DNA from: Thiotrichaceae bacterium
GTDB lineage: Bacteria > Pseudomonadota > Gammaproteobacteria > Thiotrichales > Thiotrichaceae
Reading direction: 5' to 3'
Assembly (NCBI GenBank): GCA_023144895.1
Contig: JAGLEV010000011.1
Coordinates: 1 to 31,914 of the forward strand
Length of the DNA stretch: 31,914 nt
A program made the translations under genes and the position numbers. Position 1 is the stretch's first letter. Each line of letters opens with the position of its first letter. Below are positions 2,913 through 31,914 of the stretch, one piece after another. The notes beneath the pieces were generated by a model. The model was not told the DNA's origin. It did no database searches and saw nothing but the letters and a program-made list of their open reading frames with translations.

Positions 2913-3346
2913 TTGAGTATTTGTTTTTTAATAAGAAAATCAGTAAGCTTTTTACCCAGATCGTGCAGGAAAAAGGAATTGTTTGGCAGCAAGATCATGA
3001 AGCGGTACAAGATGCTATTATTATAAAAATTCCTGAAGATGAAATCAGTGATGAACTTTGGGATGAGCTTGATAAGCGTTATGATGAGTTAAGTGATCAA
3101 GATCAGCACTTATTGGAACAGGAAGAAGCGCTAGGGGATGACCAGAGTGCAGCAGGTATTTATTTACAATTAGCGAATGGCAAACAAACGATTGCGAAAG
3201 TTGATCCTGCGATTATGAATCGCATTTTAGGTGTATTGAGCATTGAAGAGTTTAATGAGTTTCTAGAAGTGATTGTGAGTAGTGTAGAAAATCCTGATGA
3301 TACAGCGATTTGCCAAAACTCTCTTATTGATTCAACTGAAAAGTAA
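2909..3346 (+). CDS. Hypothetical acidic protein (Asp/Glu-rich)
   Basis: 145 aa. Its start overlaps the SDR stop (ATGA at 2909-2912), suggesting translational coupling. I recognise no family. Confidence 0.4.
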   Translation: MIEYLFFNKKISKLFTQIVQEKGIVWQQDHEAVQDAIIIKIPEDEISDELWDELDKRYDELSDQDQHLLEQEEALGDDQSAAGIYLQLANGKQTIAKVDPAIMNRILGVLSIEEFNEFLEVIVSSVENPDDTAICQNSLIDSTEK

Positions 3347-3842
3347 TATCCATTGCTGTGCTGATAATCTGATGATCAATAAGCCAAGCTTTTGCATCTT
3401 CAGCATCATGTAAAAACCATTGTTGTGCTGAACCTAGTCGAAAGCTATATCCCCAAGTATCCATATCATCCATCATACGTTGGCTACTAAAACCTTCTAG
3501 CCTATTGGCTAACAATATCTGTAAATAACACACCGCATTTTCTTCGTCATAATCCCCACCAGCGTTGGTATCAAGGGCATCACGGCGTTGTTTGTCCATG
3601 CAGACATAGTGACAGGCTTCATGAAATAAAGAGTGTAAGGGGGTATTGTTACGGATATATAAGCGATTAGCAATTAAGCCTGCTTCAGAGTCACCCCAAA
3701 AACTACCAGGAATGACATCATTATTATGATCACTAACGATAATACTGAGTTGATATTGACCCCAGAAGGACTGGAGTCTTTGATGGGGTATTTGCTCACA
3801 GAGTAAAACATTCTGTGAGCGGATATTATCTTGATGATCCAT
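3324..3842 (-). CDS. Hypothetical protein with HExxH motif (possible small Zn-metallopeptidase-like protein)
   Basis: 172 aa. Contains 'LFHEACHYVCM' (HExxH). Sits immediately downstream of the BY-kinase gene on the same strand with an 8-nt gap. No family assigned. Confidence 0.4.
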   Translation of the reverse strand: MDHQDNIRSQNVLLCEQIPHQRLQSFWGQYQLSIIVSDHNNDVIPGSFWGDSEAGLIANRLYIRNNTPLHSLFHEACHYVCMDKQRRDALDTNAGGDYDEENAVCYLQILLANRLEGFSSQRMMDDMDTWGYSFRLGSAQQWFLHDAEDAKAWLIDHQIISTAMDITFQLNQ

Positions 3843-3850
3843 TAAGGCTT

Positions 3851-5977
3851 TTATTGACCATAATGTAAATAGTTTTTACCTGTATCACGCATCAGAGCAC
3901 GATTGAGTAAAGTACCAATCACATTAGCTTTTGCTTGTCTTAGGCGTTTTAAACTATTGAGTACCGCATTCTTCTCAGTAGACTCAGCGCGTATAGTGAG
4001 CAGTGTTGCTTCTGCAATATTTGCAAGTACTAGTGCATCTGCCATGCCAAGCGTTGGAGGGCCATCAATAATGATATGGTCATAGCTATGTTCCGCACTT
4101 TCTATCAATGCTTTTGTTCTATCACCTGAAAGTAAGTCAACAGGATCAGGAGGAATAGGACCCGCTGCAATGACATGAAGCCCTAAGATTGCAGAATGCT
4201 GAGTAATATCCATTGCATCACTATTACCACTAAGGTAATTACTGAGTCCCACTTTATTATTCATACCAAAGATAGCGTGAATGGATGGCTTGCGTAAATC
4301 AGCATCAATTAATAACACCTTCTTACCTGAGTTGACATAAGCTGCCGCAAGGTTAATTGCAATACTGGTTTTACCTTCCGATGCGACTGCACTAGTAAAG
4401 AACAGGGTTTTTGGTGAACCATTTTTAGTAGAAAAGCGCAAAGTTGTACGTAATGAGCGAATAGATTCGGAGAGCGGGGAGCGAGGTTCCTTAATAATTT
4501 GCTGAGCAATACGTGTTCTTGTTGCACCTTTTTGTAAAGGAATAAGTCCCAGTAATGGTAGATTAGTGAAGCGTTCAACATCCTCAGCTTTTTTAAAGCT
4601 ATCATCGACAAATTCACGTAAGAAAATAAGACCAATACCTAAAAGAAAACCAACCACCGTACCGAACATTACGTTAGTTTTAACTTTGGGTTTAAATTTA
4701 TTCGTTGGTATGAGCGCTCTATCAACAATCGTTACATTATTGGTATTTAGGTCGCTAGAAATACCAATCTTCTCCATGCGCTCAACGAGCCCTTGATAGA
4801 TCGACTGATTTGCATGAACCTCACGCTTTAAACCTTCAAATATTTGAATGGATTTTTGATTGACCAGACTTTTTTCTTGCAAGTTTTTAAGGTGTTTATT
4901 GATAGAAATTTCATTGCCTTGTGCCGCCTTAAGTTTACTACTTAATGTGACTTGGTATCGCTTTGCTTCTCTGCGGATTTTACCACGAGCTAGCTCAATT
5001 TTCTTTGTAAGATTACGACCAGCACGGCGTTTATGTAATTTTCTATGCTCTAAATCACGATAACTATCTTCAAGGAGAGTGAGCTTATCTTTTAGAGCAA
5101 TAATTTTAGGCGTATCAAGCATCATTGAAGGATCAGGGCTTTTTGCCGCAAGCGTTAGGCGATGAGTTTCATTTTCTAATTCGATGCGTTTACGTTCAAC
5201 TTTTACCAGCTCATCTTGTAGAGACTTCATTAAATGTGTTGACGTTGTCTCATTATTATCAAGTACGATAATATTATTTTCTTGCGCAAACTTATTGAGT
5301 GCATTTTCTGAGCTACTGAGACGTTCTCTACCATTATCCATCTGCTTTTGTAGGAAATCTTTTGTTTGCTGAGTATTATCAAATTCACGTTTAAGCTGTG
5401 AAGTAATATATTCTTCTGCAAGTGCATTAACAATTCTTTGTGATAGTTCAGCATTTTGTGATTCATAGTTAATCGATAAGAGCTGAGAGGTGTTTAGAGG
5501 TGTTATCGATAAACCTTTAAGGAAGATGTCTTCAGGAGTAGGGGGTGCTGAGCGAATAAAAGAGAGGAGACCTGGTTTTGATTGAAAATGATCACGTATA
5601 CCCAGTTTCTTCATGACACTAACAGCCAATGTCCTGCTTTGTAGTAACTGTACCTGTGTTTGCCAATAATCACGTTCATTACGACGTTGTGCTGTTTGTT
5701 CAATCAGTATGTCGGCTGCAGCGGTTGCTTGACGTGCAATTTGAATCGTTGTCGTTGCCCTATAAATGGGTGTCATAAGGAAAGTAATAAGCAAAGACAG
5801 AATCAACCCCGCTAGGGTGATTATCATAAGAAGTTTTTTATTACTGGTGACAACACTCCAGAACTCTTTAATATTAATGCCTTTATTGGGTTCTAAAAGC
5901 TCATCAGGATAGAGGTTCTTTAATGCTTGATGACTCATTGTATCTTCAACTGTTTGCGAGTTAATTTTGTCACTCAT
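3851..5977 (-). CDS. wzc: Polysaccharide co-polymerase / tyrosine autokinase (Wzc/Ptk/ExoP family, BY-kinase)
   Basis: 708 aa. Two TM helices flank a long coiled-coil periplasmic region. C-terminal kinase has Walker A 'SEGKTSIAINLAAAYVNSGKKVLLIDADLRKPS', Walker B 'HIIIDGPPTLG' and a short C-terminal Tyr cluster (NYLHYGQ). Confidence 0.9.
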   Translation of the reverse strand: MSDKINSQTVEDTMSHQALKNLYPDELLEPNKGINIKEFWSVVTSNKKLLMIITLAGLILSLLITFLMTPIYRATTTIQIARQATAAADILIEQTAQRRNERDYWQTQVQLLQSRTLAVSVMKKLGIRDHFQSKPGLLSFIRSAPPTPEDIFLKGLSITPLNTSQLLSINYESQNAELSQRIVNALAEEYITSQLKREFDNTQQTKDFLQKQMDNGRERLSSSENALNKFAQENNIIVLDNNETTSTHLMKSLQDELVKVERKRIELENETHRLTLAAKSPDPSMMLDTPKIIALKDKLTLLEDSYRDLEHRKLHKRRAGRNLTKKIELARGKIRREAKRYQVTLSSKLKAAQGNEISINKHLKNLQEKSLVNQKSIQIFEGLKREVHANQSIYQGLVERMEKIGISSDLNTNNVTIVDRALIPTNKFKPKVKTNVMFGTVVGFLLGIGLIFLREFVDDSFKKAEDVERFTNLPLLGLIPLQKGATRTRIAQQIIKEPRSPLSESIRSLRTTLRFSTKNGSPKTLFFTSAVASEGKTSIAINLAAAYVNSGKKVLLIDADLRKPSIHAIFGMNNKVGLSNYLSGNSDAMDITQHSAILGLHVIAAGPIPPDPVDLLSGDRTKALIESAEHSYDHIIIDGPPTLGMADALVLANIAEATLLTIRAESTEKNAVLNSLKRLRQAKANVIGTLLNRALMRDTGKNYLHYGQ

Positions 5978-6529
5978 AGGTATCTTTCTTTTAATTTGTG
6001 CCTGAACTCACATTCAGGTTGTTAGTAGTATGCAGTATATAGTACTTTACTTTAAATTATTACTAGCACTTATAGAGCGTATTTTAGTAACGACAGACCC
6101 ATAAAATGGGAGGTCGAATTATAACAATAAACATAAAAGAGTCATTTGCTGACCTGACACAAGGAGGTATCCTGTGTTTTGCTATTATTCGGCATCCTTT
6201 CGGTGCTTTTGTAATGAATCGATTAAATCATACCCCTAGCATGCTTTAATGGAGAATACTAACAATTGCCTAATGTCATGGCAAGCCTGTTCCTTTTATG
6301 TTGGTTCTTATATAAATATAAGCTTGTTATGGAGCATAGTGTCTCACCCTATCTAAGTCTTAATTTTTATGCTGAAAGTTCAACATTCCCTGTTTTTATG
6401 TTGTAATAGGGAGAAATTAAGCGATAAGACATATAAGAGCATAGTAGTGCTTTATAGGATTTGGAATAGGGAATTGATACCAAGTGGAAATAAACTTGGT
6501 TTATTGGAGTGTAAGGCTTGGCATATAGC

Positions 6530-22441: not shown

Positions 22442-23209
22442 CTAGATAATAAACTTTCGAAATAATAGATTCATATTTTCATAATTCGTTGATGGAGCAT
22501 AAAGATTATCAGTATCATTCGATAAGCGTTCTATTTCATCACGAATAAACTGATTAATACTTTTAATTGAGGAGGATGTTTTTGATTCAAAACCTACTTT
22601 TTTGCGCTCAATCAGCGCGGCAATATCCTCTTTTAGCTGTCCTTCAGGAATGAGCTTATTAACCATAACATCGAATTCAAGAGGGACAATGCCAAGGTCT
22701 TTTTCCAGCCATTGCATTGCTAACAAAGGACGCAATACATAAAAGTACTTTTTGATTTGTACTTGCTCACTTTTTAGGTATTGGCGGTTGTTCTTTTTTG
22801 CCATATGAAAATAGTGATAAAAACAGGCTTTCGGTGAATAGTGCTGTTTCATTAAGTCTTTCATCGCATGAGTGAACTCATTATCTTGTCGATAAATAAT
22901 TGATGAGCTGAGCCATTCCATTAGTGCAGGGTTAGATTTTTTCATTAATTTTAATGATTTACGCAAATCCCAGCCATTAATATCAAATACCTCATCAACG
23001 GGTAGTTCAATCACATCACGCTGACTCTCAGCATTGACACTTAAATACCAATCACGTTGATTAGCATAAATAAAGCGTACATCATAATCACTATCTTGAG
23101 ATTCAAAACCCCATGCACGACTACCCGACTCACAGGCATAGAGAATTTTTACTGAGTGATCGATTTCTATTTGATCCAGTTTACTTTGTATTGCTGAGAT
23201 TATATTCAT
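22442..23209 (-). CDS. Small Pol-beta-superfamily nucleotidyltransferase (RtcB-operon-associated type)
   Basis: 255 aa. N-terminal NTase signature 'LYACESGSRAWGFESQDSDYDVRFIY' (GS...D.D). It lies downstream of rtcB and an SPFH gene on the same strand. Confidence 0.55.
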   Translation of the reverse strand: MNIISAIQSKLDQIEIDHSVKILYACESGSRAWGFESQDSDYDVRFIYANQRDWYLSVNAESQRDVIELPVDEVFDINGWDLRKSLKLMKKSNPALMEWLSSSIIYRQDNEFTHAMKDLMKQHYSPKACFYHYFHMAKKNNRQYLKSEQVQIKKYFYVLRPLLAMQWLEKDLGIVPLEFDVMVNKLIPEGQLKEDIAALIERKKVGFESKTSSSIKSINQFIRDEIERLSNDTDNLYAPSTNYENMNLLFRKFII

Positions 23210-23264: not shown

Positions 23265-24842
23265 TTATTTTAAACGTACCATGTCATTCATCATGCCATC
23301 AATACCACCATAGACATTTAGCGTATTGACATCACTAATGACACGCTCTAGAACTTCCAGTTCTTTTAGGCGCAATAGTGTTGGATTACCTTCCATCATC
23401 TTGGCTGTATTATGCAGTGAACGAGTGGCTTGTGTCTCTTCTCTACGACGAATCAAGTTAGCTTCAGCAATCTTTTGTGCTTCAACAACTTGCTCCAGAA
23501 TCTCCTTCATTTCACCAGGAAGAATAATATCCTTAACACCCGTGGATTGTAGCTCAATACCAAAATCAGAAACTTTATCTACAACGATATCAAGTACATC
23601 TTTATTGAGAAGATTCTTATCCTCAAGTAATTCATCTAAGCTACGAGTGCTAACAACAGCACGTAATGCGAGCTGAAGTTCACGGTACAAGTAGTCCTCA
23701 TGGTCGGCGAGCTTTCTTTCTACTGTTTCAGCATCTGTAACTTGCCATGTAGCGGATAGGTTAATACGCAGACTGACTCGATCCTTAGTTAAAATTTCCT
23801 GACCATTGACCGCCATATTTTGTAGGCGCATATCAAGGTGTTTAATCGTGATGTTACGATTAAACTTCCACCATGAGTAAGCACCTGCCGTTAGCATTTG
23901 CTCTAACTTGCCATCAATCCATAGAAAACCGACATGATTTTCAGTAATTTCAGTATGACAAACACAATCGCTGACCGAAGAACCTAATAGGGATTCTCGT
24001 GGTAGGCGCAACTGTCGAGCAAGTGTTTTATCAATGGCAAGTTGTGCTGTATCCTCAATATTCAGCTTTCTCACTTCTAATAGACGCTTACTTTTCCAGT
24101 ACATACCTTGCTGCCCTGGTGATAGAATATCGCGCAGTACATTATTTTCATAAACCAGACCTACCTCATTATCCGCCGTTGTCCAGTGCATAACATGGTC
24201 TTCAAATAGTGCCATATGTTGTTCAACTAATTGTAATAGGCGTGAGTTTGTTCCAATGCTTAATGGGTCATCTATTGCAATTTTTTCCAGTGTTAGCGCC
24301 TTCGACTGATCCCAAAAACGATAATGTCCATGGTTCAATACTTGTATCAATTGATCATTGCAAAACAATAGTGCACGTTTATCCATCGCTAAAGTAAAAG
24401 TACGAGTATGTTGCTCTACCTTGTGTAGGGCATGTGTTGTGCGAATTTCTTGATCAACATGACTAGGCAAACAAGGTTGCTCATCCACATTTTGTTTGAT
24501 GACCTTTAGCTTAGAAAGTGCTTTCCATAGGGCAAATTCACTAGATTCTGGAATAATATGAACAAGTTTATCATTTTGATAGATCAGTGCAATTTCACCT
24601 TTTCCAGAGCTAACGACTTGTAAATCATTAGCAAACTGTTCTGGATAAAGCTCCATGAGTTGTTGTAATCTTTTATCAATCACGATACCGACAGATTCCG
24701 TCATATCGTATACTTTTGCTTCAATAGGCGATAGGCCCCAAAAATGATGTTCGCCAGCCCCTAGAATCCTGTGAAACTGCTTTTTCTTAAAGAATAAAGC
24801 ACGTTGAGTGTCAGATAGTATCAATTTTTCAGTGATAAACAT
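23265..24842 (-). CDS. SPFH/band-7 (stomatin/prohibitin-like) domain protein with a repeat-containing N-terminal extension
   Basis: 525 aa. The C-terminal about 130 aa is a clear SPFH core ('GIELQSTGVKDIILPGEMKEILEQVVEAQKIAEANLIRRREETQATRSL...GNPTLLRLKELEVLERV'). The N-terminal about 390 aa holds 4-5 degenerate repeats of a beta-hairpin-like motif (N/D-(D/K)-x-L-x-x-h-L-x-x-G-x-(H/Y)-x-F/W-W). Confidence 0.7.
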   Translation of the reverse strand: MFITEKLILSDTQRALFFKKKQFHRILGAGEHHFWGLSPIEAKVYDMTESVGIVIDKRLQQLMELYPEQFANDLQVVSSGKGEIALIYQNDKLVHIIPESSEFALWKALSKLKVIKQNVDEQPCLPSHVDQEIRTTHALHKVEQHTRTFTLAMDKRALLFCNDQLIQVLNHGHYRFWDQSKALTLEKIAIDDPLSIGTNSRLLQLVEQHMALFEDHVMHWTTADNEVGLVYENNVLRDILSPGQQGMYWKSKRLLEVRKLNIEDTAQLAIDKTLARQLRLPRESLLGSSVSDCVCHTEITENHVGFLWIDGKLEQMLTAGAYSWWKFNRNITIKHLDMRLQNMAVNGQEILTKDRVSLRINLSATWQVTDAETVERKLADHEDYLYRELQLALRAVVSTRSLDELLEDKNLLNKDVLDIVVDKVSDFGIELQSTGVKDIILPGEMKEILEQVVEAQKIAEANLIRRREETQATRSLHNTAKMMEGNPTLLRLKELEVLERVISDVNTLNVYGGIDGMMNDMVRLK

Positions 24843-25357
24843 GATTTTTCTCCTTGGTCATGTTGATAATTGTTAATGAGGCTTCTGCCACATTTTAAAA
24901 TAGGGAGGAATGACCTTCACATTCATCGCTGTCTGTTAGCTTGTACGAATAAGAAATCAGTACTGCCACCTTGCGAGTACACTCTATAACGTGCACTGTT
25001 TAGGCTTATAGAGACTGATCGGTTATTCGCAAACCCACTCACTAAGAGCGGTAAATGCTGACTAATCCAGTAACAAACAATATTGGCAACGGTAAACACT
25101 AAAAGCTTGTTTACGATTGACCCTATTGATTATCGCTAGCATCGTCTGAAAGTCATCCCAAGGTTATGTGATGTTAGTCACGCGTCTTTTAAGGACGTTG
25201 CTCCATTTTTTTTAGAGATCAAGCATTCTCTCCTGGTTGTGTCAGTGAAGACACTTAAATGATCGGGGAAGGATCAGTTATCGTCGAGTGGATTTGCACC
25301 ACCTTCCTATAGATTATTGAATCTATCGCTCTTCTGTCTGAGCCGCTAACGACATGT

Positions 25358-25382
25358 TGCCTCTTGTCGAGGCAGGTTTTTT
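25358..25382 (+). terminator. Rho-independent terminator-like hairpin (plus-strand orientation) inside the noncoding block
   Basis: TGCCTC-ttgtc-GAGGCA followed by GGTTTTTT. There is no annotated plus-strand gene upstream, so it may terminate an unannotated RNA. Confidence 0.4.
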
Positions 25383-25543
25383 ACCTAAAAACACATGATG
25401 AATAGGTACATAGCGAGATAGAATCTCTTATGCCAGACAGGTATATCGAACCTGTTATTGCTTATTACATCAAGGTTATTAGGTAAATTAGGTTGGGGAA
25501 ATAGGCTACCTATTTCCCAAAATTTTATAGTGATATCGCATAT

Positions 25544-26770
25544 TTATCCTTTGACACAAACGACTTGCTTTAGGGTATGTACAATTTCTACCAGATCTTT
25601 TTGTGCTTCCATCACCTTTTCAATCGGCTTGTAAGCAGAAGGTGTTTCATCAATAATACTGCTATCTTTACGACATTCAACGCCTTCGGTGGCTTTAAGA
25701 TGCTCATCTAAACTCACTTCTTTTTTAGCCTGAGTACGTGACATCACACGACCTGCACCATGACTACAGCTACAAAAGCTATTTTCATTACCTAGACCAC
25801 GAACAATAAAGGACTTAGCGCCCATGCTTCCAGGGATAATTCCCATCTCGCCTTTTTGGGCACTAACCGCACCTTTACGTGTTACCCATACATCCGTATC
25901 AAAGTGATTTTCACGACTAATGTAATTATGGTGACAATTCACTGCTTCAACATCAGCGGCAAAAGGAATACCCATTTCATCATTCAGTGCTTGAATCGCA
26001 TTAACCATCATCACTTCACGATTAATACGAGCAAAATCTTGTGCCCAAGCCACTGCCATTGTGTATTCACGAAACATCGTTGACCCTTCAGGAATATAGG
26101 CTAAATCTTTATCAGGTAACTGGATAAAATAACGCTCCATATCTTTTTTAGCCTGATCAATAAAATACGTTCCAATACGGTTACCTACACCACGTGACCC
26201 GCTATGTAGCATAATCCAGACATTATTTGATTCATCGAAACAAACTTCAACAAAGTGATTACCTGTGCCTAATGTTCCAAGATGATTAATGTTATTGGTA
26301 TTTTTTAGTACAGGGTGTTTTTCCTTCATGATTTCAAATTGATCATTTAAAGGGCTCCACGCCTGAGCAACCTGAGTAGAAATTTCTCCCCAGCTTCCTG
26401 AATCACGCTTTCTACGGTTCACCTTACGACCATGTGGAATAGCACGTTCAATACGGCTACGCAAAGAGGTCAAGTTATCGGGGAGTTGATGTGCTTTTAG
26501 GCTAGTTTTCACTGCCATCATTCCACAGCCAATATCCACACCTACCGCAGCAGGGATAATCGCGCCTGTCGTTGGAATCACACTACCAATGGTTGCGCCT
26601 TTACCTAAATGTACATCAGGCATTGCTGCAACCCACTTATGGATAAAAGGCAGCTGAGCAATATTTTTTAACTGTTGTTTTGCGTTATCGTTAAAAGGTA
26701 CGCCTCGTGTCCACGACTTAATAGGAAAGTGACCTTTTTCGTGTAGTACTTCGTAGTGTGTTGAGTGCAT
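25544..26770 (-). CDS. rtcB: RNA-splicing ligase RtcB (3'-phosphate/5'-OH RNA ligase)
   Basis: 408 aa, the same length as E. coli RtcB, and near-identical over the N-terminus ('W.KGVP....A.QQL.N.A.LPFI.K..A.MPDVHLGKG.TIGSVIPT.GAIIPAAVGVDIGCGM'). Catalytic His/Cys clusters are conserved (HSGSRGVGN, CHHNY). Confidence 0.95.
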   Translation of the reverse strand: MHSTHYEVLHEKGHFPIKSWTRGVPFNDNAKQQLKNIAQLPFIHKWVAAMPDVHLGKGATIGSVIPTTGAIIPAAVGVDIGCGMMAVKTSLKAHQLPDNLTSLRSRIERAIPHGRKVNRRKRDSGSWGEISTQVAQAWSPLNDQFEIMKEKHPVLKNTNNINHLGTLGTGNHFVEVCFDESNNVWIMLHSGSRGVGNRIGTYFIDQAKKDMERYFIQLPDKDLAYIPEGSTMFREYTMAVAWAQDFARINREVMMVNAIQALNDEMGIPFAADVEAVNCHHNYISRENHFDTDVWVTRKGAVSAQKGEMGIIPGSMGAKSFIVRGLGNENSFCSCSHGAGRVMSRTQAKKEVSLDEHLKATEGVECRKDSSIIDETPSAYKPIEKVMEAQKDLVEIVHTLKQVVCVKG

Positions 26771-26807
26771 GGCTATTTACCTTTTACAATAATGATGGTT
26801 TAGGTAA

Positions 26808-26823
26808 AGCAATAGCTATGCCA
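26808..26823 (-). promoter_or_regulatory. Candidate sigma54 (-24/-12) promoter for rtcB
   Basis: The minus strand reads TGGCAT-AGCTA-TTGCT. The GG and GC are spaced exactly as in the TGGCACG-N4-TTGCW consensus. The element lies about 40 nt upstream of the rtcB ATG. In E. coli, rtcBA is transcribed from a sigma54 promoter activated by RtcR. Confidence 0.5.
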
Positions 26824-26947
26824 AAAATTATTTTTAATTAAATTTTACCTTTAATGTGTTGTTATTTATTGTGATATTTTTTATTTGTATTTTTTATTAA
26901 ATAAGTGGGATTTTATTGGTGCTGAATATTACTATCTTTTTTGATAT

Positions 26948-26991
26948 CTAATTATCAAAAAAGATAGTAATGCGGATGTTATTTTTGGCGA
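26948..26991. promoter_or_regulatory. Perfect 19-bp inverted repeat with 6-nt spacer (candidate enhancer-binding-protein UAS or strong hairpin)
   Basis: ATTACTATCTTTTTTGATA-tctaat-TATCAAAAAAGATAGTAAT. It is centred about 150 bp upstream of the candidate sigma54 -24 element, the typical position for a bEBP upstream activating site. Confidence 0.4.
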
Positions 26992-27557
26992 CCAAAGATT
27001 TCTTTGTGCATATAGTGACTATATTGGGTGTCAGGTCATTTGCTTAAAAAGTAGTAAAGCTCTGCTATTTTTAGCTTTATATCGCACGGTCTACAGCTTA
27101 TGGGAGTTGTTGGTTTCTTGAATCTTGTTAAGGCTAAATATTATTAGTAATAAAATAATTCAATCATCGATTTTTTTACGACTCATGATCTTATTAAAAC
27201 GTCGTATAATCTTGTAATCATAAAGTATTTTTTTCTTAAAATAGCAAGAAAAATGTAGGTTTAATCAATATTAAATTGCTATTGTGAAAAAAATAATCAG
27301 AAAAAGACTATTTTTATAGCTACTCTTTATTAATGGTAATTAATTATGCGAATCAAGTAGCGGGTATAAAATCAGCAGTTCCTATTTTATAGTATTTATA
27401 AAATAAGTTGATAACTATTTAAGCTTTGATTTTCTGTTGCTAAAATATTGCAACTCTCTTGCTTTATAACTAAAACGGGAACTGCTGGTGTAAAATATTA
27501 TTCAATTAACGTTAATTATCAATCATTATTTTCTATAAATAATTAATTTTAAGGGAC

Positions 27558-28001
27558 TTGGCTATGAATATAAAAAATATTGCAGTATCTGTTTTAATTG
27601 CACCTCTATTGATGATTACTGGAGATGTATCATCAGCATCATCAAAGGATGCTTCTTTAAAAAAATTAGCAGCACTTAGTGTATTCTTTGCCAGTAAAGG
27701 ATTTTCTTGTAGAAACTCAGCGAGTGGGAAATACTTAGCTCAAGGTAATACTTATACAGTTTATACTGATTTGTATAAAGAAAATGCGTATATACTAGTC
27801 GCTGCAGGTAATGAGCACGTAAAAGATATTGATATTATTTTACATGATCAAAACCATAATGTTATTTCAAAGGATGGTAGTACTGATCCCATTCCAATGG
27901 TGACGGTTTCTCCTAAGTGGTCTGGTAGCTTTCATGCTAAGGTGAAGATGTATCGAGGCAGAGGTTATTCAAACTTGATGGTTTGCTGGAAAAAACGTTA
28001 A
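27558..28001 (+). CDS. Hypothetical small exported protein
   Basis: 147 aa. Signal peptide (…IAVSVLIAPLLMITGDVSSASS), RBS AAGGGA, 4 Cys. It sits between rtcB and rtcR in a very AT-rich tract. Confidence 0.45.
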   Translation: MAMNIKNIAVSVLIAPLLMITGDVSSASSKDASLKKLAALSVFFASKGFSCRNSASGKYLAQGNTYTVYTDLYKENAYILVAAGNEHVKDIDIILHDQNHNVISKDGSTDPIPMVTVSPKWSGSFHAKVKMYRGRGYSNLMVCWKKR

Positions 28002-28081: not shown

Positions 28082-29689
28082 ATGAAAAATGTCATTATCG
28101 GTGTGCTAGGTACACGATTAGATCACGGTGGTCTAGGAAATCGGCGTTGGAAAAAATGGCGACCCAGCTTATCGATGCTATTACAAAAAGGGATTCCTAT
28201 TGATGAATTTATTCTTATTCATCATGTGGATGATACAAAGTTAGCTGAATTGACCTTTAAAGATATGGCAACCGTTGCCCCCGACACTAAACTAAGCTCT
28301 CATATTGTTGATTTCAAAAATGCATGGGATTTTGAGCAAGTTTATGCACAACTCCATGATTTTACGACACAGCAAAATTTTGATGCAGAAAAGGTAAACT
28401 ACCTTGTTCATATCACTACTGGCTCACATGTGGTGCAGATTTGTTTGTATTTATTGACTGAAGCAAATTATATTCCTGGTAAGTTGTTACAAACCTCGCC
28501 GAACCAAAAGGGAGCGACAGAAATAGAGCGTGTTACGGGTAAATTTCAGATTATCAACCTTGATTTATCACGTTATGATTTAATTGCATCACGTTTTGAA
28601 CAAGAGTCACGACAAGCGATTAGCTATTTAAAAGGGGGTATTGCAACACGTAATAAAGCTTTTAATGATTTGATCGTACAACTAGAGCAGGTTTCTATTC
28701 GTTCAACAGAGCCTATGTTACTCACAGGGCCAACAGGAGTAGGGAAGTCTCGTCTGGCTCGGCTGATTTATGATCTGAAGAAACAACGGGGTGATCTGCG
28801 TGGCAAATTGGTTGAAGTCAATTGTGCAACGCTACGGGGTGACAATGCCATGTCCGCAATGTTTGGGCATGTAAAAGGTGCTTATACAGGTGCAACGACG
28901 GGTCGTACAGGATTATTGCTAGAAGCCGATCAGGGTTTATTATTTCTTGATGAAATTGGTGAGCTGGGTCAGGATGAGCAAGCGATGTTGTTACGTGCAA
29001 TTGAAGATAAAACCTTTCTTCCCTTTGGTTCTGATAAGGAAAGTCATAGTGATTTTCAGTTAATAGCAGGGACAAATCGTAATTTATTTGAGCAAGTGCA
29101 AAAAGGTTTATTTCGTGAGGACTTACTCGCTCGGATTAACCTTTGGACTTACGAAATGCCTTCGTTAAAACAACGTATTGAAGATTTAAAACCAAATATT
29201 GATCATGAATTAGAGTTGTATACTCAAAAAGCAGGCTATAAAGTCCATTTTAATAAAGTGGCAAAGGAGCAGTATCTAGACTTTTCCTATTCTGAGCAGG
29301 CACTATGGCAGGCTAACTTTCGTGACTTAAATTCTAGTATTGTTCGGATGGCAACACTAGCGAGTGGTGGACGTATTACTGAGGCGATTGTGAAAGCAGA
29401 AATTCAACGGTTAATGCGAGATTGGCAAATCTATCAACAGCCTACAGTGCAGGATAAGACGCTCGCTATTGTAGAGTCCTGTCTTGGTGAGGATGGAGCT
29501 AAGGCAATAGATTTATTTGAACAAGTTCAATTAGCTGAAGTGATTCGTATCTGCCGAGAAAGTAAAAGTATGGCAGTCGCTGGGCGTAAATTATTTACTA
29601 TCAGCCGAATCAGTAAGGCGAAGAATAATGATAGTCATCGAGTGAGACAATATTTGCAGAAGTATGGTTTAGAGTTTAAATCTCTTTAA
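28082..29689 (+). CDS. rtcR: Sigma54-dependent transcriptional regulator RtcR (CARF, AAA+, HTH)
   Basis: 535 aa (E. coli RtcR is 532 aa). N-terminal CARF domain matches E. coli RtcR ('G.VGT.LD..G.G..RW.KWRP.L.....D...L.H........L...D.A.V.P.T...S..VD..N.WDFE.VYA.LHDF'). AAA+ Walker A 'GPTGVGKS', the sigma54-contact loop 'GAYTGA' (GAFTGA variant), and Walker B 'LFLDEIGEL'. Confidence 0.9.
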   Translation: MKNVIIGVLGTRLDHGGLGNRRWKKWRPSLSMLLQKGIPIDEFILIHHVDDTKLAELTFKDMATVAPDTKLSSHIVDFKNAWDFEQVYAQLHDFTTQQNFDAEKVNYLVHITTGSHVVQICLYLLTEANYIPGKLLQTSPNQKGATEIERVTGKFQIINLDLSRYDLIASRFEQESRQAISYLKGGIATRNKAFNDLIVQLEQVSIRSTEPMLLTGPTGVGKSRLARLIYDLKKQRGDLRGKLVEVNCATLRGDNAMSAMFGHVKGAYTGATTGRTGLLLEADQGLLFLDEIGELGQDEQAMLLRAIEDKTFLPFGSDKESHSDFQLIAGTNRNLFEQVQKGLFREDLLARINLWTYEMPSLKQRIEDLKPNIDHELELYTQKAGYKVHFNKVAKEQYLDFSYSEQALWQANFRDLNSSIVRMATLASGGRITEAIVKAEIQRLMRDWQIYQQPTVQDKTLAIVESCLGEDGAKAIDLFEQVQLAEVIRICRESKSMAVAGRKLFTISRISKAKNNDSHRVRQYLQKYGLEFKSL

Positions 29690-29803: not shown

Positions 29804-31914
29804 TTATTTCCGTAGCTCTCGCCAACTTCTAATACCTGTTGTTATTGCATCATTAATATAAATAGTCGTATTGATTCCTGTTTGACCATTGATTTTTTGT
29901 GCTGAAATACCCATGCCAAGCAATTTATTTGTTGTTGTGAAATCGAGTAGCTGAAGTGTTTTTGCATCACCTAAACCTACTGAAATCTTAGAGTTAATAG
30001 CGCTATTGTCGCTACTTTTGGTAAAGGTGTTAGTGGGAAAATAACCATTGGTTAATGAGTACAGATAATAATAAGCGGTTCCAGGACAATTAGCTCCAAT
30101 AGATACATGGGTAACAGGAAGAATGATACTGTTAGCTGCAATGGTTGCATTATCACTGATAGTCGAATTTGCTGGCAGTGCTGTAATGCTAGGATCTGCT
30201 GTTAATGTTCCACCACTCCATTTACCCGCACTGTCTCCAACAATCGCACTCCATTGTCGGATCCAGCTTGAATTTGGACTATCATATTTGAAGACAGTGA
30301 GGCGATCTTTTGATTGTGCGCGAAGGTAGTAGGCTCTATTTGTGGATCTTGATGCGCCAATATAGGTCACAGGCGATGTATCTGATGAACCGAGTGCTGC
30401 CACTGCGCCGTTGTTGATCTCTGTTTCTATTGCACTATCTGTTGCTAAAGTATTATCTACCGCTAACAATGGTGCAGAATGAATATTACCATTTGAATCA
30501 CCAAGATAGAGTGTTTTCTTGGCAGGTGCATTATTTCTTGCGTAATCCATCATAATATAAGGACTGGATGTTGCAATGAAATTGAGTGATATTAAATAAG
30601 TCGTACTTGTGTCTGCTAGGCTTCTGATATGAAGCTTAGAACTAGTACCTTCAGTTATTGTATAAACACTATAAACCTTACCGTTTTTATCAGAGAAATA
30701 AGCACGTTGCCCATGGTTGGGCGCAGTATAGACCTTTGTATTGTCAACTTCATGGTCAATATCCCAAACAACCCCATTGAGATCACTCGAGCTGTCTAAT
30801 TTTAGTACATACTGTCCCAGACCTTTTTTATAGCTCCCAATAACATAACTGTTATAAGTTGCTGATGATTTAATATCTAATACATCCGTTGTGCCGTGCA
30901 TAAAATGATGACTGCTAAAGGTATTATAATCTTTTAGTTCTTTTACTAAAGTTCGTGGAATCCACCCCCACCCTAGGTCACCACTTTCCTGATAAATAGA
31001 ATAAATAAAACCATCATTACTGCTGAGTAAGACACGTTTTTTTAGATTGATACGCTTTGAAACAACATCCGTATTATAGCTACGATAAGTACTATCACTA
31101 AGGTATTGCATCACATTCATATCTTGCCCAACCAGTGCCATTGTATTGTGTGAAATAGCCCCTAAAAAAGAGTTTTCCTTACGGTCACCAATATAAGCGG
31201 GATGATCATTTGATGGATCGAGAGTATAGTCTTTAATCGTACTAACATTAGGGGTGTTATTAATGGCAAAAGCACTCGCATCAAGTACCTCAAATTTGAC
31301 TTTGTTACCGCCTTGATTGGTTGAATAGAGTCGATTCGCTCTTTTTGTCTTATCCATTGTGCTTGCGGTATCTACAAAGCCAGTCGTCTTGACGGTAGTC
31401 ATACCATTATTACCGATGACATAAGAATTTAGATGTCCTTCAACAGGTGATAATGTTGTTGTGGCAAGAAATAACTGCTTATTATCTTTTATTTGCAGGC
31501 TACTATTAACTTCTCCTGTTAATGCTGTGCAATTAGAATTATTATCCCGATAATCTAAATCTTTCCCCATAGGAGCAGCACTGGAGCCATCTTCAAGCGT
31601 GTCATTGTCGGTATCGGCTAGTGTAAAAATATTCGTTGCATCGGTATAGCTAAGCCCATTCACATCCGTATAGCTATCATAATTAGCAGGTGTTTCAAGT
31701 ACAGGGCTATTGAATAAACCATTAACACCAAAAGCATTGCTATTATCAATAATGCCATCACTATCAGCATCAACCGTTGCAATCGTCGCTACGGTTAATA
31801 AGCCTGATTCAACAATATCTTTGATATTATCGTTATCAGAGTCAGGATCAAGATAATCGACTTGATCAGCTCCATCGGTATTGACAGGGGTTAAACCTGC
31901 TGTGTAAGCAGTAT
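29804..31914 (-). CDS. pilY1: PilY1/PilC-like type IV pilus-associated adhesin, C-terminal part (5' end outside the window)
   Basis: The reading frame stays open on the minus strand to the window edge. The ORF-track 'start' at 31663 is a GTG codon internal to that frame. Beta-propeller-type motifs 'LLSSNDGFIYSIYQESGDLGWGWIP' and 'LYLGDSNGNIHSAPL' resemble PilY1 hallmark blades. The C-terminus ends ...GIRSWRELRK. The upstream part has Asp-rich DxDxDG-like Ca-binding-type repeats (DSDNDNIKD, DADSDGIIDNSNAF, DTDNDTLEDG). Confidence 0.45.
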   Translation of the reverse strand, partial: TAYTAGLTPVNTDGADQVDYLDPDSDNDNIKDIVESGLLTVATIATVDADSDGIIDNSNAFGVNGLFNSPVLETPANYDSYTDVNGLSYTDATNIFTLADTDNDTLEDGSSAAPMGKDLDYRDNNSNCTALTGEVNSSLQIKDNKQLFLATTTLSPVEGHLNSYVIGNNGMTTVKTTGFVDTASTMDKTKRANRLYSTNQGGNKVKFEVLDASAFAINNTPNVSTIKDYTLDPSNDHPAYIGDRKENSFLGAISHNTMALVGQDMNVMQYLSDSTYRSYNTDVVSKRINLKKRVLLSSNDGFIYSIYQESGDLGWGWIPRTLVKELKDYNTFSSHHFMHGTTDVLDIKSSATYNSYVIGSYKKGLGQYVLKLDSSSDLNGVVWDIDHEVDNTKVYTAPNHGQRAYFSDKNGKVYSVYTITEGTSSKLHIRSLADTSTTYLISLNFIATSSPYIMMDYARNNAPAKKTLYLGDSNGNIHSAPLLAVDNTLATDSAIETEINNGAVAALGSSDTSPVTYIGASRSTNRAYYLRAQSKDRLTVFKYDSPNSSWIRQWSAIVGDSAGKWSGGTLTADPSITALPANSTISDNATIAANSIILPVTHVSIGANCPGTAYYYLYSLTNGYFPTNTFTKSSDNSAINSKISVGLGDAKTLQLLDFTTTNKLLGMGISAQKINGQTGINTTIYINDAITTGIRSWRELRK

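Follow-up and report, generated by a model that had tools for sequence, protein, structure and literature searches.

What lies between the RNA ligase gene rtcB and the slipin gene that follows it in a bacterial RNA-repair operon, and what might it do there? In a contig from a Thiotrichaceae bacterium (GenBank assembly GCA_023144895.1, contig JAGLEV010000011.1, of which the 31,914 nt analyzed are referred to here as the window), both genes lie on the minus strand and a block of 701 nt (24843–25543) separates the rtcB stop from the start of the SPFH/Band-7 "slipin" gene. An initial annotation, made from the sequence without database searches, had described a non-coding gap at this place and suggested that it holds an unannotated structured RNA. 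The gap is confirmed and the suggestion is borne out by a covarying three-way junction, a tRNA-like cloverleaf and a long-range helix, three elements that carry the comparative evidence and that were absent from the annotation, which was right in substance but wrong in strand and in most structural details. We have very little doubt that this is a real, conserved structured RNA homologous to the locus of the b7a-tRNA (band-7-associated tRNA). The explanation that we favor as a whole, with moderate confidence, is that the block encodes, on its minus strand and immediately upstream of the slipin gene of an RtcR-controlled RNA-repair operon, this genome's version of a structured RNA of ~580 nt that is conserved and made up of several domains.

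Conservation and covariation of the RNA

The GC content of the block (0.398) is at the level of the flanking genes (0.39–0.41) and, as initially noted, above that of the ten other intergenic stretches longer than 120 nt (0.25–0.36). A local GC of 45–50%, also claimed, is reached only near the tRNA-like element, over a stretch of ~100 nt (the highest 100-nt value, 0.48, belongs to the interval starting at 25277), and not in the remainder of the block. There is no ATG-started open reading frame (ORF) of at least 30 aa inside the block, but the earlier wording that no ORF exceeds a few codons was loose, as non-ATG ORFs of 58 and 33 aa occur on the minus strand and one of 39 aa on the plus strand; a 58-aa TTG-started ORF (25458–25634, plus strand) also extends from the block into rtcB. 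The non-coding call holds nonetheless, since the block's ORFs are without counterparts in related loci (no homolog, E at least 0.6). A small protein or a remnant of rtcA was ruled out, given ORFs without homologs and only ~58 nt from the rtcB stop to the RNA. The signal is on the minus strand, the same strand as rtcB and the slipin gene. This strand folds with z = −7.0 compared to −4.0 for the plus strand, its minimum-energy fold over the 701 nt already includes the cloverleaf, and all family models match the minus strand only. By nhmmer, block positions 42–647 (~600 nt) align to the closest relative, locus L001, with E = 5e-15, and a blastn comparison of the block with plasmids and phages gave no match. 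The block is 100% identical in six contigs (L093–L098) from different public samples, which also encode an identical slipin protein; these contigs look like one clonal population and provide no microdiversity for structure tests.

Related loci were collected from one-genome-per-species contigs via alignment of SPFH homologs (80 loci) and from metagenome assemblies by exact protein lookup, and a metagenome scan with four sequences yielded one locus. Common to the 170 nt upstream of the first tRNA-like unit is a pattern consisting of an outer stem, AGCGG, a T-arm-like hairpin (GGUUCUGNAUGCC), CUGRCRC, a second stem and GUGUAYCRA, in which AGCGG, CUGRCRC and GUGUAYC are the invariant single-stranded nucleotides of a three-way junction. 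A regular-expression search for this motif proved too fragile and a covariance model, R1, was used instead. It was built from A3, a structure-blind MAFFT alignment of 49 loci, for which the RNAalifold consensus contains 22 pairs, and compensatory changes occur in 17 of these. Standard pairs occupy 90.8% of the A3 cells, against 32–37% with the partners slid, the covariation score is 0.632 against 0.09–0.14, and the observed values were reached by none of 500 shuffles. Of 87 sources, 80 give exactly one R1 match each, scoring 19–78 bits and located in every case immediately 5' of the tRNA-likes; the misses are mostly loci cut at that end. In the window it scores 36.2 bits (E = 9e-10, filters off) with the full model covered, the runner-up having 9 bits, and the window copy folded alone returns the family junction (z = −4.8). 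This copy departs from AGCGG (AGCAAUAA), as do those of L001 and L081. The first tRNA-like unit begins 5–13 nt past the junction motif in most loci, and a hairpin spacer stands between the two in the window (35 nt), L001, L081, and L083.

One distant locus, L074 from Gilliamella sp. (SPFH identity 37%), has kept the σ54 promoter and a tRNA-like unit (ACC "Gly", 2953–3027), followed by a long-form slipin gene (3340–4869) and rtcB (4966–6174), and R1 finds no junction motif in it. This locus marks the limit of the junction motif or of the R1 model.

Downstream of the junction, at least one same-strand tRNA-like unit lies within 700 nt upstream of SPFH in 77 of the 80 loci (ARAGORN), and the units of the relatives score 36–72 bits against the Rfam tRNA model. 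Their "anticodons" (CAT in 19, GTT in 11, ATT in 10, AAA in 6, TTA, and malformed loops of 5–6 nt) vary among close relatives and often make no sense as anticodons. Tandem loci contain two distinct types. In the distal type 1, the acceptor stem has the sequence GCYGCC…, the anticodon loop is abnormal and a CCA is encoded, which directly adjoins the following unit in 21 of 29 tandem loci, while the proximal type 2 starts with AUYRCUAUAGCUCA…, has a mismatched 1:72 pair and lacks CCA. Within L002–L042, the type-1 CCA abuts the proximal 5' end or overlaps it by 1 nt (e.g., L018 4594–4742, L021 4593–4742), so that RNase P cleavage of unit 2 would leave a mature-looking 3' end on unit 1. Group B loci (L043–L080) have, in the first 60–70 nt past the tRNA-like unit (e.g., L064 4617–4680), a hairpin and then a "mini-elbow" composed of UGGUAAAGG, a GNRA-capped stem and a perfect T-arm GGGGUUCGAAUCCCC, without acceptor and D stems, which may substitute for a second tRNA-like unit.

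On sequence grounds, the cloverleaf of the window is homologous to the tRNA-likes of related Band-7 loci. It falls on the L001 tRNA-like unit (1677–1749, 58.9 bits) in the nhmmer alignment, and shares a GAUAGA/UCUAU anticodon stem with L083 and L089. The cloverleaf is the minimum-energy fold alone as well as within the 701-nt fold. The comparison with Rfam that had been suggested at the outset gave, as the one meaningful match in a permissive 1-kb scan (24700–25700), tRNA (RF00005, 25353–25279; E = 8e-4) with 29.2 bits against a gathering score of 29; RF00005 was not listed in the whole-window Rfam scan at gathering thresholds, and ARAGORN called no tRNA on the window. The acceptor stem has 7 bp with one bulge, the D stem 4 bp and the T stem 5 bp with the loop UGCAAAU, and the anticodon arm can be drawn with 5 bp and an 8-nt loop or with 7 bp and a 4-nt loop. 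The four stems are kept without G18G19 (D loop AGACAGAA), the TΨC sequence or CCA. With its abnormal anticodon loop, no G18G19, a UGCAAAU T loop and no CCA, the element is therefore a tRNA mimic and not a tRNA.

The cloverleaf is flanked by small hairpins. At the place of the 6-bp inter-module hairpin (25356–25376), L001 has a hairpin and CCA, and L081, L090, and L083 have a hairpin and a full type-1 tRNA-like unit ending in CCA; judged from these alignments, the hairpin of the window is probably the reduced remnant of a first (type 1) unit. The initial annotation had seen a plus-strand terminator here. Its hairpin and T-run (25357–25375) do exist, but they are the reverse complement of the inter-module hairpin, relatives have a hairpin of different sequence at this place, and terminator-like sites are at chance level (4 found between 22000 and 28200, 3.7 expected from shuffles). 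No minus-strand terminator-like site was found in the block, including between the RNA and SPFH. A proposed GGGGAAGG/CCTTCC stem was not upheld either, as it competes with the tRNA-like T-arm and with the hairpin at 25260–25276. At the equivalent of 25238–25277, relatives carry a hairpin with a GNRA cap and, after it, ACAACC or AAAC. In L001, 24 masked bases (N, 1748–1771) run from the last bases of the tRNA-like call, and window positions 25255–25278 are thus not comparable. The 10-bp stem noted after the rtcB stop is present; L001 has a different hairpin in its place, and it is possibly an mRNA 3' stabilizer or a processing mark.

Between the last tRNA-like unit and the SPFH start, relatives always have 200–450 non-coding nt. 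RNAduplex between the leader ends was not discriminating (z ~0), and the best contiguous helix was instead sought between the spacer ends, with shuffled controls. The window has a helix of 13 contiguous bp (its score of 29 exceeds both the mean, 18.2, and the maximum, 24, of the shuffles), and homologous long-range helices with one-sided and compensatory changes occur in L001, L083, L087, and L086. Helices found across groups are GAGGCCCAU/GUGGGCCUC with the variants GGGCUUCU/GGAAGCCC, GAGGCUCAU/GUGAGCCUC, and GAAGCUCAU/GUGAGCUUC, and a second set is made up of GAUAGGGCCUCC/GGAGGCUUUAUC with the variants CGGCAAACCUCC/GGAGGAAUGCCA and CGGCGGACCUCC/GGAGGUUCCGUC. In the 25 loci of group A, for which separate 5' and 3' MAFFT alignments were made, a 12-bp helix is 79.5% paired, and slid partners give 43–51%; for group B, in which some 5' strands are misaligned, the 9-bp helix is 70% paired compared to 31–47%. 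RNAalifold on ten Methylococcales spacers returned the long-range helix unprompted together with an inner GCAAAC/GGGUUUGC helix, to which the inner helix of the window corresponds, and all three groups of loci retain a UGGGUUUG motif. A two-sequence RNAalifold of the window and L001 was not trusted for this domain, MAFFT having misaligned the long-range strands.

From the end of the long-range helix it is 20–65 nt to the start codon (in the window, ~50 nt to the ribosome-binding site of the slipin gene), and the 3' strand of the helix lies upstream of the Shine–Dalgarno sequence, excluding it, in the window and in every group of relatives. Sequestration of the slipin ribosome-binding site by the group-A helix (…CCUCC/GGAGG…) was considered and rejected, the true site AAGGAGA being 15–20 nt further downstream. 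What had been read as a Shine–Dalgarno sequence and mini-ORF of a leader peptide (GGGAGGAATGACC, ~24909) is this helix's 3' strand in reverse complement.

Table 1. Elements of the RNA block and of the operon around it, with positions in the window.
Feature	Positions	Strand	Remarks
Three-way-junction motif (UM; model R1)	25381–25486	−	R1 match 25485–25389
Junction P0	25479–25486 with 25381–25388	−	Outer stem
Junction P1	25463–25472 with 25396–25404	−	Outer stem
Junction P2, T-arm-like hairpin	25437–25455	−	Followed by conserved CUGGCAU
Junction P3	25408–25433	−	Followed by conserved UGUACCUAU
6-bp hairpin UGCCUC/GAGGCA, then ACAU	25356–25376	−	z = −3.2
Degenerate tRNA-like cloverleaf, type 2 homolog	25279–25353	−	Rfam RF00005
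Two small hairpins (25260–25276 and 25239–25254), then AACC	25238–25277	−	z = −3.6
Long-range helix, 5' strand GGGAUGACUUUCA	25147–25159	−	Closes ~250-nt 3' domain
Inner helix, 5' strand UCGUAAAC	25109–25116	−	Pairs with GUUUGCGA at 25027–25034
Conserved segment GUGAGUGGGUUUGCG	25027–25042	−	Its GUUUGCGA is the inner helix 3' strand
Long-range helix, 3' strand UGAAGGUCAUUCC	24907–24919	−	~64 nt upstream of SPFH ATG
10-bp hairpin	25496–25518	−	25 nt past rtcB stop; no U-tract on minus strand
Shine–Dalgarno AAGGAGA of SPFH gene	24849–24855	−	Outside long-range helix; same layout in relatives
rtcR	28082–29689	+	NF038308, 740 bits; divergent from rtcB
σ54-type promoter TGGCAT-N5-TTGCT (TGGCATAGCTATTGC)	26809–26823	−	Pattern match; 38 nt 5' of rtcB ATG
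rtcB, 408 aa	25544–26770	−	PF01139, E = 5e-132; upstream of RNA block
SPFH/Band-7 "slipin" gene, 525 aa	23265–24842	−	PF01145, E = 1e-27; 100% identical to a Thiotrichaceae MAG protein named "slipin family protein"
rlaP, RNA-ligase-associated Polβ nucleotidyltransferase	22442–23209	−	PF10127, E = 7e-90; last gene of the module

Operon setting and proposed role

The genes of the window follow the order rtcR (plus strand), an AT-rich spacer with a small ORF, rtcB, the 701-nt block, SPFH, rlaP, and a KefC-like transporter gene. The loose σ54 pattern by itself is not significant (6 matches compared to 3.0 expected), but the position of the site before rtcB, adjoining the divergent rtcR, is as expected for a σ54-dependent RtcR operon. 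Inside the block, a pattern scan found no σ54-type promoter, and σ70 promoter-like sites were no more frequent than the shuffled expectation. An rtcB–RNA–SPFH–rlaP transcript likely begins at the σ54 promoter. Among the relatives, rtcB is upstream of SPFH on the same strand in ~50 of 80 genomes. The gap between the two genes is 330–1,120 nt in ~29 of these and mostly ~1.4–2.6 kb in the remainder, with a few above 3 kb; the one gap of ~1.4–2.6 kb that was checked (L047) contains rtcA. Where the order is SPFH–rtcB, SPFH–rtcA or SPFH alone, the non-coding leader is still found in front of SPFH with a σ54 promoter abutting it, and in relatives with SPFH first in the operon this promoter (TTGGCAC-N5-TGCA) lies at the 5' edge of the RNA.

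Most relatives have a slipin of ~387 aa; that of the window, at 525 aa, is a long form carrying ~145 additional aa as an N-terminal module. This module (residues 1–145) is conserved in a small clade (P0002–P0012, P0017) and, by eye, repeats the opening motif of the standard protein (DTQRALFFKKKQF…HHFWG compared to DKRALLFCNDQL…YRFWD). Inspection by eye of the window slipin showed no hydrophobic membrane segment. In Thiolinea disciformis (L010 2461–4344), the σ54 promoter, RNA and slipin gene form a stand-alone module, rtcB being absent within 5 kb, and the gene in front of it encodes an FtsH-like AAA + M41 peptidase; SPFH proteins of the HflK/C type are partners of FtsH. Arrays of 3–18 canonical-looking tRNA genes adjoin the operon in several related loci (L043 6585–10396; L047 6995–10706; L055 881–3830; L060 3064–3793; L044 2868–3708; L075 3426–4349; L068 3764–4398), downstream of SPFH in L043 and L047 (Kangiellaceae) and upstream of the junction motif in Cellvibrionaceae and others. 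They are reminiscent of the Anabaena trn array that is co-regulated with rtcB and slipin (PMC10272220).

Elsewhere in the window, the spacer between rtcB and the small ORF (26771–27557, 787 nt) is unusually AT-rich at 25% GC and must contain the RtcR binding sites. The small ORF between rtcB and rtcR (27558–28001, plus strand) has an ATG near 27563 and a signal-peptide-like N-terminus (MNIKNIAVSVLIAPLLMITG…), and neither Pfam nor NCBIfam gives a match to it. Downstream of rtcR, a 619-aa ORF (29804–31663, minus strand) is likewise without a Pfam or NCBIfam match. Type III secretion-like genes (secretin N0 domain, YscD-like FHA protein, YscK) are located at 10227–15668, ~10 kb from the Rtc locus, and within this region 978 nt (12263–13240) contain no ORF of at least 90 aa.

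The sequence elements of the RNA, their conservation and covariation, their order and strand and their context in RtcR/σ54 operons with genes for RtcB, RlaP and often RtcA are all direct observations. By analogy to YrlA with Rsr, its most likely role is that of an RtcR/σ54-induced RNA partner of the slipin–RtcB–RlaP module, and the Rtc variant found here, which lacks Rsr, plausibly has its RNA partner in this block. The specific mechanism with the slipin as partner is tentative. RtcR is switched on by damaged tRNA fragments with cyclic-phosphate ends (PMC7790460). The RNA would be made only when RtcR fires the σ54 promoter before rtcB, or the promoter directly before the RNA in slipin-first relatives, and tRNA damage would in this way lead to its production. 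It could then be released or kept as a stable structured RNA, the borders of the tRNA-like units acting as RNase P/Z-type processing sites, and would be the partner of a cytoplasmic slipin oligomer, in the manner of YrlA Y RNA and Rsr/Ro elsewhere among rtcB operons. The protein-binding handle may be formed by the junction together with the 3' domain, while the tRNA mimic or mimics may recruit tRNA-directed repair enzymes (RtcB ligase; RlaP adding 3'-end nucleotides) or, alternatively, compete with anticodon nucleases. RlaP extends damaged RNA 3' ends by one or two nucleotides, and the restoration of over-trimmed tRNA depends on it (PMC12776372); translational stress in Anabaena co-induces rtcB, a slipin gene and a tRNA array (PMC10272220). 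More speculatively still, these loci could represent an uncatalogued class of large RNA (0.5–0.7 kb) before the slipin genes of proteobacterial RtcB/RtcR operons, comprising a junction with a T-loop-like hairpin, 1–3 tRNA mimics and a 250–350-nt long-range-helix domain. Such an RNA would assemble with a cytoplasmic slipin oligomer into a stress-induced ribonucleoprotein that organizes tRNA repair by RtcB, RtcA, and RlaP, as a bacterial counterpart of Ro–Y RNA or vault particles.

The role of Band-7/SPFH proteins and a predicted tRNA-like RNA in bacterial RNA repair is a question dating from 2016, and the present analysis bears on it by turning a single predicted "tRNA-like gene" into a defined multi-domain RNA with exact borders, a covariance model and invariant nucleotides. 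If slipin binding is true, it would mean a second Y-RNA-like solution (scaffold protein and tRNA mimic) in RtcB operons as well as a new class of large structured RNA. The RNA partner of this repair system is now directly testable, and cultured carriers include Methylomicrobium, Thiothrix, Thiolinea, Cellvibrio, Simiduia, Aliikangiella, and Microbulbifer. Examples at species level are Methylomicrobium lacus, Thiothrix caldifontis DSM 21228, Cellvibrio fibrivorans, and Aliikangiella marina. For genome annotation, tRNA calls with odd anticodons (AAA, ATT, "Stop") at these loci should not count as decoding tRNAs.

Alternative explanations

Several points weigh against the favored explanation. That the RNA is transcribed and processed and binds slipin, and what role the tRNA mimic has, is inferred, and the b7a-tRNA class was still prediction-only in 2018 (bioRxiv 10.1101/312249). 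The element of the window is at the Rfam threshold, with 29 bits compared to 47–68 in its closest relatives. The D-loop GG and T-loop UUC, which build the tRNA elbow, are lost, ARAGORN rejects the element and type 1 is reduced to a hairpin. In view of this degeneracy, a loss of function of the tRNA mimic may be under way in this lineage. For the 3' domain of the window, the internal structure is drawn from few close relatives (L001, L081/L090, L083). Finally, the RNA invariably forms part of the slipin mRNA's 5' leader, which leaves some probability that it acts purely in cis.

This last point leads to the rival that survives best, although we consider it unlikely, namely that the whole structure serves as the 5' untranslated region of the slipin–rlaP mRNA, through which the translation, stability or 3'-ward transcription of this message is controlled, and does not act as a free RNA. 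The tRNA-like unit, for instance, might detect an anticodon nuclease, RtcB or RNase P and rearrange the leader in response. Such a role would fit with an RNA that immediately precedes the SPFH start, and shares its strand, in any gene order, with a long-range helix whose end is 20–65 nt from the start codon and with the lack of a minus-strand terminator between RNA and SPFH. However, the Shine–Dalgarno sequence is outside the long-range 3' strand in every group and no conserved terminator/antiterminator pair is seen. At 500–700 nt, with several autonomous and strongly covarying domains and 1–3 tRNA mimics, the structure is also far above the size of known cis-regulators. In addition, the RNase P/Z-compatible borders of the tRNA-like units and the encoded type-1 CCA (21 of 29 tandem loci) point toward release as separate RNAs.

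It is improbable that the tRNA-like units are processing punctuation or decoys only, that is, RNase P/Z sites splitting rtcB from the slipin–rlaP mRNA or sacrificial targets of tRNA-cleaving toxins, with the neighboring structures being stabilizing hairpins without a protein partner. Their borders do lie between cistrons with hairpins flanking them, and a role as competitive inhibitor was proposed for YrlA's tRNA-like domain by Hughes et al. Nonetheless, the RNA is retained where there is no upstream cistron and the σ54 promoter abuts it, and the invariant single-stranded nucleotides of the junction (AGCGG, CUGRCRC, GUGUAYC) exceed what a stabilizer needs. The anticodon loops are unconstrained and often malformed, which would make them poor decoys for anticodon-specific nucleases.

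The degeneracy described above (29 bits, elbow nucleotides gone, type 1 only a hairpin) could also be taken to mean that the RNA is a decaying relic in this Thiotrichaceae lineage, the block being neutral DNA that resembles its ancestors. We consider this very improbable. The four cloverleaf stems, the full three-way junction and the long-range and inner helices are intact, as are rtcB, SPFH, rlaP, and rtcR, the GC content is at coding level unlike other intergenic DNA, and L001 conserves the block over ~600 nt (E = 5e-15). Least credible of all is a plus-strand small RNA ending at ~25382 and/or a plus-strand leader peptide at 24909–24946, as first proposed from the hairpin with T-run at 25357–25375 and a GGGAGG-N-ATG at ~24903, since each of these two features is a minus-strand helix read in reverse complement, and relatives conserve the helices in their position or their pairing, terminator-like sites are at chance level, the plus strand folds less well (z = −4.0 compared to −7.0), family models match on the minus strand only, the 39-aa plus-strand ORF has no homolog, and the RNA would be co-transcribed with rtcB and the SPFH gene on the minus strand.

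Comparison with known RNAs

A multi-domain structured RNA upstream of the slipin gene, the explanation favored here, can be set against several known systems. For neither the junction motif nor the 3' domain does Rfam 15 contain a match, whether in the window, in 20 related loci or in two complete leaders, permissive scans included; at gathering thresholds the window has no matches and 14 related loci have tRNA only. Matches to Plastid-ycf2, snoRNA and miRNA families were far below thresholds and were treated as chance. Among them, the reverse complements of tRNA-likes in L021, L053, L085, and L087 score 19–36 bits against a gathering score of 65.7 for the Plastid-ycf2 5'UTR (RF04354), which suggests that this model is partly tRNA-antisense-like and that the matches are an artifact. 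A phage origin was rejected, as five pattern matches in IMG/VR all failed the R1 model and ARAGORN. No account of a larger RNA was found in the literature on RtcB with slipin, SPFH, tRNA-like RNA or RlaP, within a scope that takes in Burroughs and Aravind (2016) for the tRNA-like unit.

The closest precedent is the b7a-tRNA, predicted by Burroughs and Aravind (2016), for which redundancy with YrlA has been proposed in a 2018 account (bioRxiv 10.1101/312249). Both are a tRNA-like unit beside a Band-7/SPFH gene, on the same strand, in an RtcB operon, and the element of the window is at exactly that position; judged from sequence, the tRNA-like part of the window belongs to this predicted class. 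However, the window copy is far more degenerate than one that, in the words of that account, "strongly resembles an authentic tRNA", and the unit here makes up ~75 nt of a ~580-nt structure whose junction, two unit types and long-range domain lie outside the description given there. Set against that account, the composite architecture around the tRNA-like unit appears to be undescribed.

Canonical tRNAs share the cloverleaf, and in the relatives the D and T loops are near-consensus and the type-1 CCA is encoded. In contrast to canonical tRNAs, the anticodons of the family are unconstrained and often impossible (AAA, ATT, TTA), the type-2 1:72 pair is mismatched, and the window copy is without G18G19, TΨC, a 7-nt anticodon loop, and CCA. 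As for cis-regulatory leaders, no minus-strand terminator-like site, helix sequestering the Shine–Dalgarno sequence or conserved terminator/antiterminator was seen here.

The large RNAs GOLLD, ROOL, OLE, and raiA are likewise 0.5–0.7 kb long, multi-domain and associated with tRNA sequences. None of their Rfam models matches, however, and here the tRNA mimics are contained in the RNA instead of being neighboring tRNAs. This RNA is also chromosomal and tied to one protein gene, the viral-contig scan having given chance matches only. The vault particle contains MVP with an SPFH-like shoulder domain, the TROVE-domain protein TEP1 and vault RNA, and thus combines an SPFH-fold cage protein with a small structured RNA. 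An evolutionary link of the vault to the Ro/TROVE–Y RNA theme is of interest as a lead only, as the vault is eukaryotic and has no sequence relationship to this locus, and as a closed cage and RNA binding would both be hypothetical for this slipin.

YrlA with Rsr (Ro60) in rsr-yrlBA-rtcBA operons (Chen et al. 2014, PMC4201824) provides the analogy on which the proposed role draws. The initial annotation had thought of a Y-RNA-like molecule while noting that Rsr is absent. The first idea failed, with nothing at E of at most 10 for the YrlA model (RF02553) in the block or in the surrounding 24700–25700, and with matches of 26–32 bits in relatives, against a gathering score of 69, that cover the tRNA-likes only. 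The second is confirmed for the 20 window ORFs scanned against Pfam, none of which has a TROVE (rsr) domain. The two systems nevertheless have in common an operon-encoded non-coding RNA in an RtcR/RtcB operon, a combination of a protein-binding module (here putative) with tRNA-mimicking modules, and a partner protein that is a presumed ring- or cage-forming scaffold. They differ in that the RNA of the slipin operons is five times longer, lies within an mRNA leader next to a partner gene for SPFH instead of Rsr/TROVE, and carries its junction, tRNA-likes and 3' domain in series and not nested in a Ro-binding stem.

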